Origin: Candidatus Woesearchaeota archaeon
GTDB taxonomy: Archaea; Nanobdellota; Nanobdellia; Pacearchaeales; GW2011-AR1
NCBI GenBank assembly: GCA_964497435.1
Contig: CAZCCD010000003.1
Coordinates: forward strand, 53,683 to 117,682
Direction: 5' to 3'
DNA: 64,000 nucleotides
The first letter of the stretch is position 1. Each line of letters opens with the position of its first letter. Both the position numbers and the translations under genes were made by a program. This document shows positions 1 to 10,544 of the stretch, piece after piece. Under the pieces are notes generated by a model, which saw only the letters and a program-made list of their open reading frames with translations, searched no databases and was not told where the DNA came from.

Positions 1-1439
1 AAATCAATTTTTAATTTCATAAATTCCTTGATTTTAATTAAATTATGTTTTTTCCACCATACATATCTCTGCTTTTTAACATTTAATTCTTTTAAGGAAT
101 ATTTCTCAAAAACATTTTTAATCGGGTCTCCGCATAAAAAATCTTCCTCAAAAATTTGAAGATGATCCATTAAATTTATTTCATTAACTTTATTACCTTC
201 AATTGGAAGAGTCCTTGGAACAGCGATGAATGACCTCCCCTCTTTCAAATCAGTTGGTTTAATCTCGATAAGCCCATCTTCCCCTAAAGAAAAAAGAGAG
301 TGATCTTGAGTTACTTTTATCTTTCTTCCTGTAGATGTTAATACTTCATAAATATCTTTTTTAACTTTGTGTTTAATGTATGAGCTTGGTTTAACAAAAA
401 TAATCTTGCCTTTTTCATCAATTGTCATAACTTCTGCATCTATTTTCTTTTCTACAAATTCTTTAATAGTTACATTTCTAATAATTCCTTTTTCCTTCAC
501 AATTATTTTTGAATCACCTGTAACACTGTCTTCAATACTGACGATTCTTGCTTCTGGAGGTATAAAGAATACTATCGCATTCAACAAAGTCGTTTTTCCC
601 GACGCTGTTCCTCCTGTTATAAGTATATTCATCTTATATTCTATTAAAAGCCACAGATAAGCTATCATTTCAGGGCTTAGAGTGTTCATTGACAATAATT
701 TAGGAGGAGTCCAGGGAGTTTTTGTGAATTTTCTAATTGTGAATGTAGGGCCCTTGCTTGTTATGTCTTTAGTGTAAGTTGCATTTACCCTGCTCCCATC
801 AGGAAGACTTCCATCAAGTATAGGATTAGCATATGAAATATATTTCCCGGCTCTTTGTGCAATCTTTTCTATAAAACTAGTAAGCCTTTCAAGGTCATTA
901 AATATAACACTTGTCCTCATATTCCTAAATATTCTATGGACTATGTATATATGATTATCGACTCCATTACACTCTACGTCCTCAACAAAATAATCTTTTA
1001 TAAGAGGATCAACCTCATTATAGCCTACAAAATCTCTAACAATATAATAATAAATTTTAGAGTAAGTTTCGTAACTCATCATTATCCCAAGCTCAACAGC
1101 TATAAGTTTGAATCTCTTGTCAATGTAATCAAGAAGATTATCAAGGCTTTTTTCAACAACCTCCTCAAAGTTAACTAGATCTCTCATTGCAGAAATTATC
1201 TGGTCTTTATATGTTTCTTCTATTTCATTTAATTGAGGTTCTTCAACATCATAAACTAACTCATAGTTTTTAAAATCCCAATAAATATGAGTAAAACAAA
1301 AAGGAGAAACTAAAGCATATCTTACATCTATCTTTGTTTTATCTCGTATTTTTTTTAAATTTGGAACTCTTGGATTAAAGTCCAGAGCTACTCTCGGATA
1401 ACTTTCTATTCCAGGAACCAGTTTACTTTTATTATCCAT
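1..1439 (-). CDS. Type IV pilus/archaellum-family secretion ATPase (FlaI/TadA/VirB11-GspE superfamily), 3'-truncated by window edge, interrupted by an intein
   Basis: Reverse translation from ATG at 1439 gives MDNKSKLVPG...; the conserved ...PDGSRVNATY...GPTFTIRKF region; Walker A GGTASGKTTLLNAI; then ...RIVSIED followed by intein-like sequence (SVTGDSKIIVKEKG..., block-B-like GRKIKVTQDHSLF). Not in ORF track because it runs off the window. Confidence 0.8.
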   Translation of the reverse strand, partial: MDNKSKLVPGIESYPRVALDFNPRVPNLKKIRDKTKIDVRYALVSPFCFTHIYWDFKNYELVYDVEEPQLNEIEETYKDQIISAMRDLVNFEEVVEKSLDNLLDYIDKRFKLIAVELGIMMSYETYSKIYYYIVRDFVGYNEVDPLIKDYFVEDVECNGVDNHIYIVHRIFRNMRTSVIFNDLERLTSFIEKIAQRAGKYISYANPILDGSLPDGSRVNATYTKDITSKGPTFTIRKFTKTPWTPPKLLSMNTLSPEMIAYLWLLIEYKMNILITGGTASGKTTLLNAIVFFIPPEARIVSIEDSVTGDSKIIVKEKGIIRNVTIKEFVEKKIDAEVMTIDEKGKIIFVKPSSYIKHKVKKDIYEVLTSTGRKIKVTQDHSLFSLGEDGLIEIKPTDLKEGRSFIAVPRTLPIEGNKVNEINLMDHLQIFEEDFLCGDPIKNVFEKYSLKELNVKKQRYVWWKKHNLIKIKEFMKLKID

Positions 1440-2747: not shown

Positions 2748-3227
2748 CTAAAAAACCTCAATTTCATAACTATTTTGTTTTTCATCGCAAGTATGTGTTC
2801 TTTCCCCTTTTTCAGATGTGCCAAGAAGGACAGGGGTCAATATAATACTTTCGGCAGAGCCAGTATATGAACTTATATCTTCAGAATAGCTTCCTCCTTG
2901 AGCAAGACCTTTGTCAGGCCATGTAGATATGTCTTCTAAATCCATAGACTCTCTGCTTCCTCCTCCAACTATTTTTATCTTCATTCCAAAAATAGGGATG
3001 TTTCCGTCGTTAACAATAGACAACTCTCCATTGTAGTAATCAGCCGTAAACTCTACTTTTTGGCATGTTAACTCAATATTTTCTCCTCCGAATTTTGTTA
3101 TTGTTTCTCCTCCTATTCTCCTAAACCATAAAAATATAATCAATGCAATTACAACAACCATTGCCACTAAAAGCACTGTAGCAATAACAGGAGAGACACC
3201 TTTTTTTTCACTCCTATTTTTTTTCAT
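2748..3227 (-). CDS. Archaeal type IV pilin-like protein (DUF361-like class III signal peptide)
   Basis: N-terminus ...SEKKG|VSPVIATVLLVAMVVVIALIIF, the canonical archaeal pilin pattern. Confidence 0.7.
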   Translation of the reverse strand: MKKNRSEKKGVSPVIATVLLVAMVVVIALIIFLWFRRIGGETITKFGGENIELTCQKVEFTADYYNGELSIVNDGNIPIFGMKIKIVGGGSRESMDLEDISTWPDKGLAQGGSYSEDISSYTGSAESIILTPVLLGTSEKGERTHTCDEKQNSYEIEVF

Positions 3228-3264: not shown

Positions 3265-3825
3265 TTAACTTGAACAGCTTAATATTTCTTTGATTTTTTT
3301 CTCTGCTCCACAATTTGCAAAATCACGCTTATTTTCTCTTTCCTGCCATCTTGCAGGTGTTATTTCTAATGTTGATATAGGGCCTACATTATTTAAATTG
3401 TAAATATGAGTTATTTCGTTTCCAGGATAAAAAGAGTTGTTGTTTCCTTCAGCAAAAAGCACAGCTTCCCTGAATTTATATACATTTCCAGTATTAACTA
3501 GACTATCTATTAAACTTATTGTTGCCTGTTTTTCAGGATTGTCACTGGCCTTTATTATATATCCAGCAATATCAAACCTTCCATTATTGACTAGAGTTAT
3601 ATTCAGCACGCTGCCTGTGCAGTTGTAAAAATAACTTTTAACTCCTATAGATGTTCCATCAGGACATTCAATCTTTTCTTGAGGAACATAAGATTTCATC
3701 CACATATAGAGTATTCCGCCCATTACAACAGCTATGGCTACTAAAAGCACATATCCTATTAGCTCGCTTACACCGCTTCTACTTTTCCAAAATACCTTAG
3801 TTTGTCGCAACATAAATTTCACCAT
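3265..3825 (-). CDS. Archaeal type IV pilin-like protein
   Basis: N-terminus ...KSRSG|VSELIGYVLLVAIAVVMGGILY. Confidence 0.6.
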   Translation of the reverse strand: MVKFMLRQTKVFWKSRSGVSELIGYVLLVAIAVVMGGILYMWMKSYVPQEKIECPDGTSIGVKSYFYNCTGSVLNITLVNNGRFDIAGYIIKASDNPEKQATISLIDSLVNTGNVYKFREAVLFAEGNNNSFYPGNEITHIYNLNNVGPISTLEITPARWQERENKRDFANCGAEKKIKEILSCSS

Positions 3826-4333
3826 TTATTTCTTGAGATATTATGAAATAAAAATTTTCTCCTTTTCTTATTTCAAAAGTGTAATTTGTATCATATTTCT
3901 GGACATTTATTACATACTTAACAGGGCTCCCATATGAAGTTATACTTGATGGAATTGTTATCTTGTTTCCATTATCATATGTAAATGTATCCATATTAAT
4001 TACATCGGGGCCTATTGGTGGTGTTGTCCTGTTTCCTACTATGTATATTATTTCAACATCTTCTCTGACATAACTCGAGAAATTCCTTGTGAAGCTATTC
4101 CACGAATATACTCCAGTATATGCTCCTTGATTTAATATTTTCCCACTTTCAACACCCAATTCTTCAGCAAGTTTTTCTACTCTTGTATTGATTATTTTTT
4201 TTGAAGTGTTTGTTATTAATATAAGGCCTGCCATGAGAGCTATTATGGCCATTGCAGCAATTAAATAAATCTGACCTCTTTTATTCGACCACGCCTGGAC
4301 AAATTGACCTCCTTTATCCTCTTTTTTAATCAT
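3797..4333 (-). CDS. Archaeal type IV pilin-like protein
   Basis: N-terminus ...SNKRG|QIYLIAAMAIIALMAGLILI (KRGQ motif). First gene of a co-directional pilin-pilin-pilin-pilin-pilin-ATPase array. Confidence 0.65.
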   Translation of the reverse strand: MIKKEDKGGQFVQAWSNKRGQIYLIAAMAIIALMAGLILITNTSKKIINTRVEKLAEELGVESGKILNQGAYTGVYSWNSFTRNFSSYVREDVEIIYIVGNRTTPPIGPDVINMDTFTYDNGNKITIPSSITSYGSPVKYVINVQKYDTNYTFEIRKGENFYFIISQEINGEIYVATN

Positions 4334-5203: not shown

Positions 5204-5971
5204 TTACTTTATTGGAACAACTTTGTTATTAACAATTATCTGTTTTGGAACCTTACCTTTAGATTTTGAAAAATAATTCCATATTAATATAATTGCAAGT
5301 ATTATAATTATTAATCCAAACGACCTTGCTGGTGATTTAATAAAGTTATTTATACCAGAAAGGAAAGCACCTGTTATGCTATCTGTTACACTTGATTCAC
5401 ATTCCTTAAATGTTGCTGGTTTCAATGTTTCTGTCCCGCAGGCATTTTGATCTTCACAAGTTCTTGTCCCGCATTGGCCTTCTACATTACTCCATTTACT
5501 ACATGACCAGCTTTCTACACATGCTGTTGAGATTCCAGGCTCGTTATTTGAAGATATTGTGATGACAGAACCTCCACCGCCATTGCCACCATTTCCATTA
5601 CCTCCACCTCCACCGCCATTACCCCCATTGCCACCATTTCCATTAGGAGGCAATTCTCCACAACTTCTTGTGTTGAATGGTGGATCACAGTTTTTAGGCC
5701 TCAAATTTTCAGTATCGCATAAAGGATTTGTTTGGATGCAGATAAATGTCTTTTGATTATTCTCCTCACATGTCGTTTCATCCCAGAAACTTGAACTCCA
5801 ATCTTCTTGGCATCCTGCAAAAACTCCTCCGCCAGTGCTTACTTTTAAAAATCCATGCTCTGTTTCAGCGATTGAAAATCCAAATCCTCCAATAGCTAAC
5901 GCTAAAATAAACATCACAATTGCAAATTTTTTTTGTTTCATTTCCATCAGAACGTATTTAATTTTACTCAC
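5204..5971 (-). CDS. Cys-rich secreted, membrane-anchored protein with Gly/Asn-rich linker
   Basis: N-terminal signal/TM, many Cys, an NGNGGNGGNGGGGGGNGNGG linker, C-terminal TM helix. Its start overlaps the stop of the giant gene by 8 nt. Confidence 0.6.
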   Translation of the reverse strand: MSKIKYVLMEMKQKKFAIVMFILALAIGGFGFSIAETEHGFLKVSTGGGVFAGCQEDWSSSFWDETTCEENNQKTFICIQTNPLCDTENLRPKNCDPPFNTRSCGELPPNGNGGNGGNGGGGGGNGNGGNGGGGSVITISSNNEPGISTACVESWSCSKWSNVEGQCGTRTCEDQNACGTETLKPATFKECESSVTDSITGAFLSGINNFIKSPARSFGLIIIILAIILIWNYFSKSKGKVPKQIIVNNKVVPIK

Positions 5972-8900
5972 AATCTAAATCTTCAATATCTATATCTCCA
6001 TCACAATCATTATCTATTGAATCATCACAAACTTCAGTTTCAGGTACACACTCTGGCTCAGGCTCTTCACATATGTTTGTCAAAGATTCAATCCAGTATT
6101 CTAGCTCATGAACCCCAGGTCCTATCGCACTCATGTCTTCTGAATCAAGCTCAAGGTGCAATTCAAATTCTGTCCTGCCATTTATCTCACTGCATTGTAA
6201 CTGAAGGAATTCAGCATCTGTTATAAACCAGCATAATCCTGTTTCAGGGTCCCAGAAATCACCAACTTCTCCACATTCTTGTTCTGTTAAGCCAGATTCA
6301 TGCCTTAATCCAACTGTGGCACTCTCTCCTGTTTCAGGATTTGTTATTATAGCATTCATATCCCCAGGAGTCACAAGGCCTTCTATCTTATTTAGCCAGA
6401 ACTTAATGCTGTTGTCTCCCCTCATGCAAATATTGTAAGTAAAGTCACAAATACCGCCTTCTTCAGGGTCAATTCCGCATATTGCAGGGGTTATAAATTC
6501 AACAAAAATACCATCTAAAAGAGTTTCTTCAACTTCTTTACAATTTTCATTTCCATTACCATCTTCTGCACAGACCTTAAGAATATAATCTCCAGCAGGA
6601 AGTTCTTTGTTCATTATACCTTCCCATGTTACTGTCTGTCCATAATGCACAATATTTAAGTCAATTTCTCTAAGTGGTTCGTCTCCTTCATCTACAGGAG
6701 TTGCCCATAATTCAGCCCATGCTCTTATTACGCCTGATTTTTCATCATCTATTGAAGCAACTATTTTCTGGACACACATTTCTATTTCTCTTTCGTTTGA
6801 ATTAGGATTCCTTATTATTATTTCAGGACCTGCAGAGTCAACATTATCCCATTCAATGTTTGCTTCTCCAACATTTCCTAGGGCATCTCTGCAGAACCAT
6901 TCAATATTATGTAGTGAATCTTCCTGGAAGTTAAATCCATAACCATCTTCTTCTGTTAAAGAACAACAGAAAGGAACCCAATCTTGTGATTCTTCACTAT
7001 ACAATTCTTCAATTTCTCCTCCAAATTGTTTGCAATATTGCTCTGTTAAGAATGGAGGAGTTTCTTGATTATCGTCATCCCATGATATTCTATAACAAAG
7101 AGATTCATGGTCAACAGGATGTGGTTCTCCATCTTTACAGCTTAAAGTTATTGGTGTTTCACCTGTGACAAACCATGCAGGCCATTCTCCTTGAGGTCCG
7201 CATAATTCTTCATCACCTACACAAGGATATTTTGGCTCTCCAACTTCTTTATCTGTTAAAGGAGCTGTATTATCAACAAACACACACTGTTTATTCACTC
7301 TTTCTGTTTTTTCAACATTATCAACACTGTAGTATTCAATTAGGTGGCATGATTCCTCGGTTTTATAGAATGGAATGCCATGATAAGTGTTCCATTCACC
7401 TCGTCCAACAGCTTGCTGGCAAACATCTTGATTCAAACAGTTCTCATCATCAACAAGAGTATTTCTCCAGAAAGTTTCACTTATTCCAGAAGGATGAGGT
7501 GCCTGATCTCCACCATCAAGGTAAACAGCTGTTTCAGAGCTTATCCATGCAGGGAACCATTCTTCTTTTTCTTCATCAAACTCACACATTTCTTTTAAGC
7601 ATAATTCAAGTGCTTCACCATCTTCTCCAGCTTCATATCTGCACCAATCCTGACAAGTAAAGTAAGGACCATCAAATGACTTTGTTGTAACTGGTGGTGT
7701 TTTATCAACAATAAATGTTTCTTCATCAACTACTCTATTTCCTAGAGCATCTTCACACTCTATTACTAGATTATGGCTTGATTCTTCTGGGAATTGAACT
7801 ATAAACTCACTTCCAAGTTCATCATCGCCAGGTATAACATTTCCACCATTAACAGTGTAACTCCATTCACAAGTCACATCATTTACAGGATGAGGTTGAG
7901 GATCTTCAACACTAACATGAATTTCAGTAACACCATCAATATAACATACATCTTGGCTACCCGGTTTTGGAGGGCATTGTCCGTAACTAGGGCCCACAAT
8001 TTCTTTAGTTATTTTAGGAGGCACTGAATCAACAATATCAATTTCTCTATGTGGTTCTTCAGCTGTTCCATCTGAATTTCCAAGAGCATCAACACAATAC
8101 CATTCTAAAACATGTCTTGAATCTTCTTCTTTGTAAATTGTAACTTCTCCATCTTCTTCAACCCAATATTCAGGAGGCCGGCTTCCCTCTAAATAATCTC
8201 TCCAGTAAAGAGTCACATCATCTATTGGATGTGGTTCTTGATCAGCACAAGATAGAGTTATTGGAGTTTGTTGAGTTATGAACCAATCACACTGTCCATC
8301 TTGAGGTTCTGGTGGTTGACCGCCAATTCCACATGTACCTTCTTCAATTTCATAAGCTTTTAAATGATTATTCTCGAACATTCTTACCCAGATAGCACTC
8401 ACTGGGAAAGTAGCATCATCACACTCTAAATCTTCAGGCCTGTCTCCTGGTGCAGAAAATTCTCCGAGATTTGTCTTTGAGTCTTTGTCAAATCTAAATA
8501 TTTTATCCCCACCATTATTTGCTAAATATAAATCTTCTCCTCCAACAGCAATACCGCTATTCCCAAAAGGAATTCCTGGGGCAAAGCTATCAACAACTGA
8601 ACCAGTTAAATTTAATTCATAAACAGTTGGTCCAACATCACGACTAAACCATATTCTATCATCGCTGTCAGAATTTGGATCGTTTTCGTCATATGCTAAA
8701 CCATCACAAAAATGGAAATGATCTCCTGGAAGTGTTTCTATTAGTGTTACATCACCATTTAATTCTAATTTATATAACTTATTTGGAACACCATTTGAAC
8801 AAGCCCATATTACATTTCTCTTTGCATCATAACCCATTGCACCTAAATTTATTGCCGGACTTGTAGCCAACTCTCCTATTTCTGAGCCATCGTCTGGATT

Positions 8901-10544
8901 AATTAATTTTATAACTGTTGTTTCATCAGGAACATACAAAACTGTGCCATCAAAAGCTACTCCGACATTACTGAAAGCACCAACATCATCTGACATTGTT
9001 ATATCTCTAAGAAGATCTCCAGGTGAATTATGCTCTTCGTTATTTCCATTTTCTCCGTTAATATTATCTCCTCCATTTCCATTTTCCTCACAAGCAACTT
9101 TTGGCTCTCCAACTTCTTTCTTTGTGATTGGTGGCAAAGCATCAACAATATCTAATTCAAAGTGATGCCTTTCTTCATTAGTACAACCATCACTTGCCCA
9201 GTATTCAATCAAATGGCAGGAATCATCTATTAAATTCAAGTGAACATCTTCATTAGGCAATCCTTGCCCAGAATCTTTAAGAGTCCATACAGGTTCTCTT
9301 ACAGTGCAATCTTCACTAAACCATATTCTCCAATTTATTACAGGATTGTCAGAGATTTCATGGTCAGGAGTGTCGGGGTCTTCGGCAGAAAGCCAGATTT
9401 CTGTTCCAGGCTTAACATAATAGCAACCATCTGTTAAAGCATTGCCATTTGCTGTTGTATAATCACAATTAAAAGAAACCTCGTCTGCAAAATCAATTTT
9501 CTTTTCTGTTACTGGAGGAACAGTATCTTTTATGAAAGAAACAATAGGATTGAATGTGAATTTACCCCAGTTTTCTTGTCCGTCTTTTCCATGTAACTGG
9601 ACATAATGTGTTCCCTCACTTAAATCATCTAAATCAATAGTAGCTTCAACATCTTCACATCTTTCATTGAATGAGCCATCAGAAGCAGTCATTGGAATTC
9701 CCCGCCAATTTATTGGATTATCTTCATCAATAAAATATTCAGCAGCTTGTATTCTTGACTCATCATCACAGACATTTCCAGATACAATAGGATCATCACC
9801 ACAAACTAAAAGTTCTTCTGGGTTACATTCATCATTTAACTTAATTCCATTTTCATGTTGCAAATTATCTCCTTCTTCACATGTTGGGTAAAAAGGAGGC
9901 AGGCAGTCAACATCTATTCTTATTGTTTCACAATCTCCCCAATTTCCAGCAACATCTTGTCCTCTAACATGTACATTAATGCTTCCGTCTTGTGTACCCA
10001 CTCCGCTTTTTGTTACAGCTTCAACCAATGAATTATAAAGCCCGTCTGTTGCATTAAGTGGATTTCCACTCCCTTCTGCTCCGCAAGTTGCTCCTCCAAG
10101 GAAATATTCAGCTTCTGCAATTGCAGAACACTGATCAGTCTCTAAGGCATCTATTTTTATCTTGCAGGCATCAACAACTTTTACAGCAGTTAAATCAGAA
10201 GTAACAGGGCCAGTTTCGTCAGGAAACTCATTAAAAACACAACCCTGTTGAACATCACAAGAAAAATCTCCACACTGATCTCCAGGTTCACAAAGAGAAT
10301 CATCAGGAGTATAAACACATCCTGTTTGTTCGTTACAAGAATCAACTGTACAAGAAACACCATCGTCACAAACTATAGGAGTATTCACACACCCACCACC
10401 CTCAACACATTCATCTATTGTGCAGGCATTTCCGTCGTCACAGTTCTGTGGAGAACAAGCACTCACAGAAGAACCAAAATTAATTATCCCAATTATAAAT
10501 ATCAGCAAAACTAAAGAAATTTTCACGTCTTTTCTTAAACCCAT
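5964..10544 (-). CDS. Giant secreted Cys-rich surface protein (1526 aa) with CxxxNxCTxDxC repeats, beta-propeller-like region and C-terminal MopE-like CxDxDNDCDG motif
   Basis: Signal peptide MGLRKDVKISLVLLIFIIGIINFGSSVSA; repeats CDDGNACTIDEC, CDDGVSCTVDSC; C-terminus CDDSIDNDCDGDIDIED. Confidence 0.75.
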   Translation of the reverse strand: MGLRKDVKISLVLLIFIIGIINFGSSVSACSPQNCDDGNACTIDECVEGGGCVNTPIVCDDGVSCTVDSCNEQTGCVYTPDDSLCEPGDQCGDFSCDVQQGCVFNEFPDETGPVTSDLTAVKVVDACKIKIDALETDQCSAIAEAEYFLGGATCGAEGSGNPLNATDGLYNSLVEAVTKSGVGTQDGSINVHVRGQDVAGNWGDCETIRIDVDCLPPFYPTCEEGDNLQHENGIKLNDECNPEELLVCGDDPIVSGNVCDDESRIQAAEYFIDEDNPINWRGIPMTASDGSFNERCEDVEATIDLDDLSEGTHYVQLHGKDGQENWGKFTFNPIVSFIKDTVPPVTEKKIDFADEVSFNCDYTTANGNALTDGCYYVKPGTEIWLSAEDPDTPDHEISDNPVINWRIWFSEDCTVREPVWTLKDSGQGLPNEDVHLNLIDDSCHLIEYWASDGCTNEERHHFELDIVDALPPITKKEVGEPKVACEENGNGGDNINGENGNNEEHNSPGDLLRDITMSDDVGAFSNVGVAFDGTVLYVPDETTVIKLINPDDGSEIGELATSPAINLGAMGYDAKRNVIWACSNGVPNKLYKLELNGDVTLIETLPGDHFHFCDGLAYDENDPNSDSDDRIWFSRDVGPTVYELNLTGSVVDSFAPGIPFGNSGIAVGGEDLYLANNGGDKIFRFDKDSKTNLGEFSAPGDRPEDLECDDATFPVSAIWVRMFENNHLKAYEIEEGTCGIGGQPPEPQDGQCDWFITQQTPITLSCADQEPHPIDDVTLYWRDYLEGSRPPEYWVEEDGEVTIYKEEDSRHVLEWYCVDALGNSDGTAEEPHREIDIVDSVPPKITKEIVGPSYGQCPPKPGSQDVCYIDGVTEIHVSVEDPQPHPVNDVTCEWSYTVNGGNVIPGDDELGSEFIVQFPEESSHNLVIECEDALGNRVVDEETFIVDKTPPVTTKSFDGPYFTCQDWCRYEAGEDGEALELCLKEMCEFDEEKEEWFPAWISSETAVYLDGGDQAPHPSGISETFWRNTLVDDENCLNQDVCQQAVGRGEWNTYHGIPFYKTEESCHLIEYYSVDNVEKTERVNKQCVFVDNTAPLTDKEVGEPKYPCVGDEELCGPQGEWPAWFVTGETPITLSCKDGEPHPVDHESLCYRISWDDDNQETPPFLTEQYCKQFGGEIEELYSEESQDWVPFCCSLTEEDGYGFNFQEDSLHNIEWFCRDALGNVGEANIEWDNVDSAGPEIIIRNPNSNEREIEMCVQKIVASIDDEKSGVIRAWAELWATPVDEGDEPLREIDLNIVHYGQTVTWEGIMNKELPAGDYILKVCAEDGNGNENCKEVEETLLDGIFVEFITPAICGIDPEEGGICDFTYNICMRGDNSIKFWLNKIEGLVTPGDMNAIITNPETGESATVGLRHESGLTEQECGEVGDFWDPETGLCWFITDAEFLQLQCSEINGRTEFELHLELDSEDMSAIGPGVHELEYWIESLTNICEEPEPECVPETEVCDDSIDNDCDGDIDIEDLDCE

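Follow-up and report, generated by a model that had tools for sequence, protein, structure and literature searches.

A probable class 1 intein in the Asp box of a type IV pilus-like assembly ATPase from a DPANN archaeon

The left end of the window (the whole stretch of DNA that was analysed, 64 kb in length) holds a gene for a pilus assembly ATPase, which is read on the minus strand and runs out of the window at base 1, and a group of small genes that precede it on the same strand. The features that concern us here are the following:

1439..1437 (ATG) to base 1, minus strand: pilus ATPase gene, open to base 1, 479 codons visible.
528..1439, minus strand: N-extein, aa 1-304, FlaI/GspE-like (COG0630, Pfam T2SSE), from profile matches and collinearity.
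588..614, minus strand: Walker A motif GGTASGKTT, aa 276-284, read directly.
528..548, minus strand: Asp box RIVSIED, aa 298-304, with the predicted N-terminal splice junction right after Asp304.
1..527, minus strand: predicted N-terminal 175 residues of an intein, with blocks A and B and then the beginning of the linker/DNA-recognition region; the window edge cuts the element.
525..527, minus strand: codon AGT, Ser1 of the intein (aa 305), predicted nucleophile of the first splicing step, from the register of TIGR01445.
527..489, minus strand: intein block A, SVTGDSKIIVKEK.
291..329, minus strand: intein block B, GRKIKVTQDHSLF, with Thr73 (B:7) and His76 (B:10) of the intein.
1432-1977, 2220-2747, 2748-3227, 3265-3825 and 3797-4333, minus strand: five small prepilin-like genes, from ORF translations.

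The visible part of the host protein belongs to the T2SSE superfamily, since the Pfam profile T2SSE (PF00437) scores 46.3 bits on the N-extein against a cut-off of 24.9 (E 3e-12) and both a Walker A motif and an Asp box are found in it. In a profile search the NCBIfam FlaI model covered aa 19-305 and ended at the junction (E 1.6e-67), and the N-extein is collinear with the intein-free orthologue P0013 over aa 10-304, with 78% identity. On the FlaI equivalog NF058587, which has a cut-off of 550 bits, the N-extein alone scores 228.5 bits, and P0013 and P0022, two complete orthologues with no intein, reach 376 and 375 bits, also short of the cut-off. Because of this low score and of the five prepilin-like genes that lie before the ATPase gene, the label FlaI/GspE-like type IV pilus-like assembly ATPase suits the host better than archaellum motor, and no archaellum accessory genes were seen in its operon context. 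A preliminary description of this DNA had named it a pilus/archaellum ATPase, of which the FlaI/TadA-type part stands and the archaellum part is the less suitable label on the same two grounds.

Regarding the relatives of known structure, intein-free orthologues align end to end with A. fulgidus GspE (PDB 2oap, E 1e-104) and with S. acidocaldarius FlaI (PDB 4ii7, E 2e-78). Unlike the ATPase of the window, both are without an intein, and the insertion point is contiguous in them, reading VVSIEDTREI and IVTIEDTPEL respectively, with the motif IEDT(R/P)E. The DPANN operon also differs from these GspE and FlaI relatives in having pilin-like genes and not archaellum accessory genes.

The products of the five small genes upstream of the ATPase, all on its strand, have a short charged leader followed by a hydrophobic helix, as for example in KKG/VSPVIATVLLVAMVV. 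The Pilin_N profile gave one weak match among the five (E 7e-4), which is below its cut-off. The ATPase gene and the small gene before it share 8 nt, the start of the one lying over the stop of the other (ATGGATAA), and in the relative L002 two genes for T2SSF membrane proteins (FlaJ/TadC-type) follow the ATPase gene.

Directly upstream of the pilin-like genes there are two more ORFs, at 5204-10544 on the minus strand. The one of 1526 aa is Cys-rich, apparently secreted and matches the Dicty_CTDC repeat, and the one of 255 aa has a Gly/Asn-rich low-complexity stretch and hydrophobic segments at its termini; they may be surface or adhesin proteins tied to the pilus locus. The large ORFs of the window include ArgRS, a class I aaRS, aIF5B/IF-2, a P-type ATPase and a Na/H exchanger, all of them intein-free. 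In the 64-kb window we found no inteins beyond the element in the ATPase, no tRNA genes and no Rfam families at gathering score.

The intein fragment that follows Asp304 was recognised by two intein profiles, in the kind of search that the preliminary description had proposed, and both matches lie above the curated cut-offs: Pfam Intein_splicing (PF14890) scores 50.1 bits against 35.8 (E 3.5e-13) and TIGR01445 (intein_Nterm) scores 46.3 bits against 24.5 (E 6.3e-12). These matches are far beyond chance. The match to TIGR01445 begins at aa 306, which is placed on position 2 of the profile, and therefore Ser305 would be the nucleophile of position 1; the Cys or Ser that class 1 inteins have at this position is thus a Ser here, directly after IED. 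Block B contains VTQDH, with the Thr73 and His76 of class 1 inteins at window positions 311..300. The motifs and coordinates of the preliminary description are exact: the intein region, which had been given as about 1..527, is confirmed, and of the motifs it had named, the Ser after IED has its codon at 527-525, and blocks A and B lie at 527..489 and 329..291.

Compared with the corresponding part of the full-length inteins in the related loci L001-L046, their first 175 aa, the fragment shows 60-77% identity, and from the closest alleles a full length of about 480-486 aa is expected. The best match in the protein database is 72% identical. An exact 62-mer from the window edge had no matches in metagenome contigs, and protein-guided scans of genome and metagenome contigs gave no near-identical contig, the best relatives being around 77% identical. 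The GC content of the intein-coding part is 27.5%, compared with 32.3% for the N-extein part and 32.1% for the whole window. The structure predicted for the intein part (P0001) from an alignment of 6 sequences had a mean pLDDT of 44 and a pTM of 0.30 and was too poor for a fold search. A split intein was also considered and rejected, because the 175 aa contain no stop and are collinear with contiguous full-length alleles.

The boundary of the insert can be read from relatives with and without it. Many intein-free orthologues of around 514-521 aa match the N-extein with 75-78% identity and have the sequence RIVSIED/TRELNLPQENW, where the slash marks the insertion point, and about a dozen intein-bearing relatives obtained by protein search all read IED/SVTGDS. 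The two junctions share no residue, so the boundary is unambiguous, and this comparison predicts that the N-extein ends at Asp304, that the intein starts with Ser and that Thr is to be expected at +1. In the related loci the break falls at xED/S or QQD/S in all 78 cases, and excision of the intein reproduces the intein-free ATPase sequence exactly. The ATPase had been described as normal up to RIVSIED, and actually it is collinear with the intein-free orthologues as far as aa 304; the alignment of exteins to intein-free homologues, suggested at the same time, puts the insertion between Asp304 and the Thr of IED/TRELNLP. Insertion in a conserved ATPase motif is typical of inteins.

The part of the element that the window edge cuts off was studied in relatives carrying an insert at the same site. 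One genome per GTDB species was scanned, 130 stretches were found to encode an intein relative, and 80 loci were kept. The N-terminal junction was accessible to analysis in 78 of these, and the C-terminal one is visible in 76. The kept loci are labelled as DPANN (Nano-, Woese-, Pace-, Aenigmat-, Iain- and Nanohaloarchaeota) with one exception, L007 (JAFCCB010000011.1). This locus is labelled Candidatus Dojkabacteria (CPR), its N-extein is 63% and its intein 68% identical, and mis-binning of a DPANN contig is the probable explanation.

Residue 1 is Ser in every one of the 78 loci. In the 76 loci with a visible C-terminal junction the intein measures 466-524 aa and is followed by Thr as the +1 residue in all cases (76/76), and it ends with His-Asn in 75 alleles and with Lys-Asn in the remaining one. 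This single Lys-Asn belongs to the IED/T allele of L038 (SNIILKN/T), which departs from the others in block A as well (SVTSNN). In the approximately 50 loci that could be aligned to the intein-free P0013, the ATPase sequence is taken up again, in frame, from the first C-extein residue on. In the relative L002 (999 aa) Pfam finds T2SSE on both sides, Intein_splicing at aa 312-782 and LAGLIDADG_3 inside it, and the LAGLIDADG endonuclease profiles PF14528 and PF05204 match in the relatives.

Among the 76 inteins, the positions conserved in at least 90% are S1, V2, G4 and D5 and the motif KVTxDHSLF on the N-terminal side, GLWxxDGxYD and GxFSxDG, which are the two LAGLIDADG motifs, and VxDxSxPxxExFxCxN..HN, which represents blocks F and G and includes the block F Asp. 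These residues are exactly the predicted catalytic ones. The C-terminal end of the orthologous alleles reads VFDLSxPxxEKFxCNNxxVHN. Thus blocks F and G, a terminal Asn, a +1 residue and the resumption of the ATPase, which the preliminary description had hoped to find beyond base 1, are present in the 76 orthologous alleles as IED/S..HN/T, and the insertion without blocks F and G or without any return of ATPase sequence, which it had named as the opposite outcome, is not what these alleles show. Judged by its sequence, this same-site family is a textbook case of class 1 inteins that contain a LAGLIDADG homing endonuclease.

We therefore regard it as very probable that positions 1-527 of the window encode the N-terminal third of an intein of the canonical class 1 type (Ser1/Thr+1), equipped with a LAGLIDADG endonuclease and lodged in the Asp box of a pilus ATPase of a DPANN archaeon. 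On this reading the copy would continue intact past the window edge, would splice and would have an active endonuclease. The preliminary description had considered a Ser nucleophile unusual at this position, and this has to be corrected, since class 1 inteins have either Cys1 or Ser1 as a standard, with Thr+1 as an accepted nucleophile (PMC4031507), and Ser occurs in 78 of the 78 alleles.

Regarding inteins of known structure, the closest sequence to the 175-aa fragment is PI-PkoII, the Pol intein of T. kodakarensis (2cw7, E 7.7e-8), followed by the TFIIB inteins of Methanocaldococcus (5o9i/5o9j, E 2e-7 for the window fragment). Like the window element these are class 1 archaeal inteins, although their hosts and insertion sites are unrelated and the similarity is limited to the conserved intein blocks. 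PI-PkoII has a LAGLIDADG endonuclease of its own, and its splicing and endonuclease parts each align with the full-length relative L002.

The host family has also been met before. The text of Novikova et al. 2016 (PMC4760082) counts 21 inteins in archaeal VirB11 (COG0630) and 5 in CpaF, so that COG0630 ATPases are, on that account, a known intein carrier. Those inteins share the host family and the domain of life with the window element. The window allele was seen here in DPANN lineages only, as against the archaeal VirB11/CpaF inteins of that survey, whose text gives no insertion sites for these ATPases. In the literature on inteins combined with FlaI, DPANN, type IV pili and secretion systems we found the IED/T allele undescribed, which is weak evidence of novelty.

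A different reading of the window copy would be that it is a decayed or truncated intein, or a pseudogene, with an unseen remainder that lacks the endonuclease, the C-terminal junction or both, and that no functional ATPase results. Everything that should follow in this gene, from the endonuclease through blocks F and G and the +1 residue to the C-extein, falls past base 1, where no near-identical contig takes over, and the decay of an intein and its endonuclease is part of the established homing cycle. However, the 175 visible codons are open and collinear with the full-length alleles, and they keep all the conserved positions at the identities given above. Furthermore, the 64-kb window has no second T2SSE ATPase that could serve as a replacement, the ATPase gene is translationally coupled to the upstream pilin genes, and the junction is complete in every related locus with a long enough contig. 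With these observations on the other side, a decayed copy appears unlikely to us.

Less probable still is an insert that does not splice, in the form of a HINT-type or lineage-specific domain similar to a bacterial intein-like domain, which stays in the ATPase or merely cleaves it. Although the window itself shows just the N-terminal half of a HINT domain, bacterial intein-like domains are without a +1 nucleophile (PMC4031507), and here Thr+1 is found in 76/76 and His-Asn in 75/76 of the alleles. Besides, the insert interrupts a catalytic motif that is invariant and runs unbroken in 2oap and 4ii7, and its removal gives back the intein-free sequence to the residue.

Finally, the KlbA intein of M. 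jannaschii (MJ0781; PDB 2jmz/2jnq) had been mentioned as a precedent, and this is correct for the host superfamily, since KlbA is likewise an archaeal ATPase of the type II/IV secretion family and its intein has the HINT fold and the block B Thr/His. It is not correct for the element. The KlbA intein belongs to class 2 (PMC4031507): its residue 1 is Ala, G:6 is Ser and the +1 residue is Cys. It is a mini-intein of 168 aa with a Ser-Asn end, and it sits at GHDG/C, close to the His box. In the window element, which sits at IED/T, residue 1 is Ser, and its alleles point to a His-Asn end, Thr+1, about 480 aa and a LAGLIDADG endonuclease. The extein residues in the PDB chain of 2jmz give the native N-extein as MNTGHDG/ALAYDEP, which places the KlbA site around 65 extein residues downstream of IED/T, and no match to 2jmz was obtained, either with the window fragment or with a full-length allele. 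Locus L050 even has both elements side by side in one gene. Thus, an orthologue of the KlbA intein, in which the +1 residue would attack the N-terminal amide directly, was rejected: apart from the shared host superfamily, none of Ala1, Ser at G:6, Cys+1 and the GHDG/C site is found, and the probability left to this idea is negligible.

For the class 1 intein that we favour, the events on the protein can be sketched from established intein chemistry (PMC4031507). The precursor would have about 1000 aa, in which an intein of about 480 aa separates Walker A from Walker B in the ATPase core, and therefore the precursor should be inactive. In the first step Ser1 would perform an N-O acyl shift, aided by Thr73 and His76 of block B and by the block F Asp. 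The resulting ester would be attacked by Thr+1 to give a branched intermediate, then the C-terminal Asn would cyclise with the assistance of the penultimate His, and finally an O-N shift would restore the IED-TRELNLP peptide and with it an active ATPase. Pilus assembly would thus presumably depend on splicing, as had been proposed before. Such a dependence holds for every intein lodged in an essential motif.

The element also appears to be mobile. There are around 12 intein carriers among the 120 best ATPase matches, and the identity of the intein is weakly coupled to that of the exteins (Spearman 0.30, Mantel r 0.41 for 35 single-intein orthologues; 16 of 2000 Mantel permutations reached r 0.41). 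In L017, from Aenigmatarchaeota, the exteins are 42-44% identical to the others and the intein is 67-69% identical. The endonuclease domain would make the element spread through cuts at the same codon of alleles that lack it, and such homing would explain the patchy presence among close orthologues. The conserved acidic motifs of the LAGLIDADG domain, the patchiness, the weak coupling and the case of L017 would fit ongoing homing over pure vertical descent.

Apart from the site of the window, the ATPase family carries further inteins. We found multi-intein relatives at L038 (7547-13570), L040 (1669-7743), L041 (2410-8529), L043, L036, L042, L050, L071, L072 and L077, with ATPase ORFs of 1500-2046 aa that contain two or three inteins each, and Pfam finds three Intein_splicing stretches in L038 as well as in L040. 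Altogether six insertion sites are used across the family, the first being IED/S..HN/T and the others as follows:

LPDG/S..HN/S
GPTF/C..FD/T
GK/C..SN/T, in Walker A
GMA/S..HN/S
GHDG/A..SN/C

In the ORF 8918-13483 of L050 the second insert (aa ~946-1383) is of the KlbA type, a class 2 intein with Ala1 and Ser-Asn/Cys and an E of 1e-35 to 2jmz, and with 438 aa it keeps the LAGLIDADG and HTH domains, in contrast to the 168-aa mini-intein of M. jannaschii KlbA. In L036 (aa ~246-785) and L043 (aa ~235-773) the GPTF/C intein apparently ends with NMFD or NIFD before T(L/V)RKFTK, so that a C-terminal Asp and a penultimate Phe replace His-Asn, this junction being placed by alignment to the intein-free reference alone.

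The modest surprises of the family, namely up to three inteins per gene, six sites, an endonuclease in a class 2 intein and, in another intein, an apparent Asp end, all lie outside the window. The same element is present at the same site in well over 100 public DPANN genomes, which makes it a routine find, and the window element is a further copy of a widespread, standard DPANN intein.

One could also imagine that the Ser1/Thr+1 intein is not just a parasite, that DPANN archaea use it as a post-translational gate on the ATPase and the pilus, and that the piling up of inteins in this gene reflects selection and not homing opportunity alone. We consider this improbable. If it were true, a pilus for surface or host contact would become active only after an intein with all-oxygen nucleophiles had spliced.

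For the annotation processes, the gene should be described as an intein-containing FlaI/GspE-like pilus assembly ATPase. The public records of relatives are named just 'TadA' or 'secretion system ATPase', and precursors of 1000-2000 aa could easily be taken for novel giant proteins. For intein specialists, this ATPase family may serve as a natural test bed for multi-intein genes.
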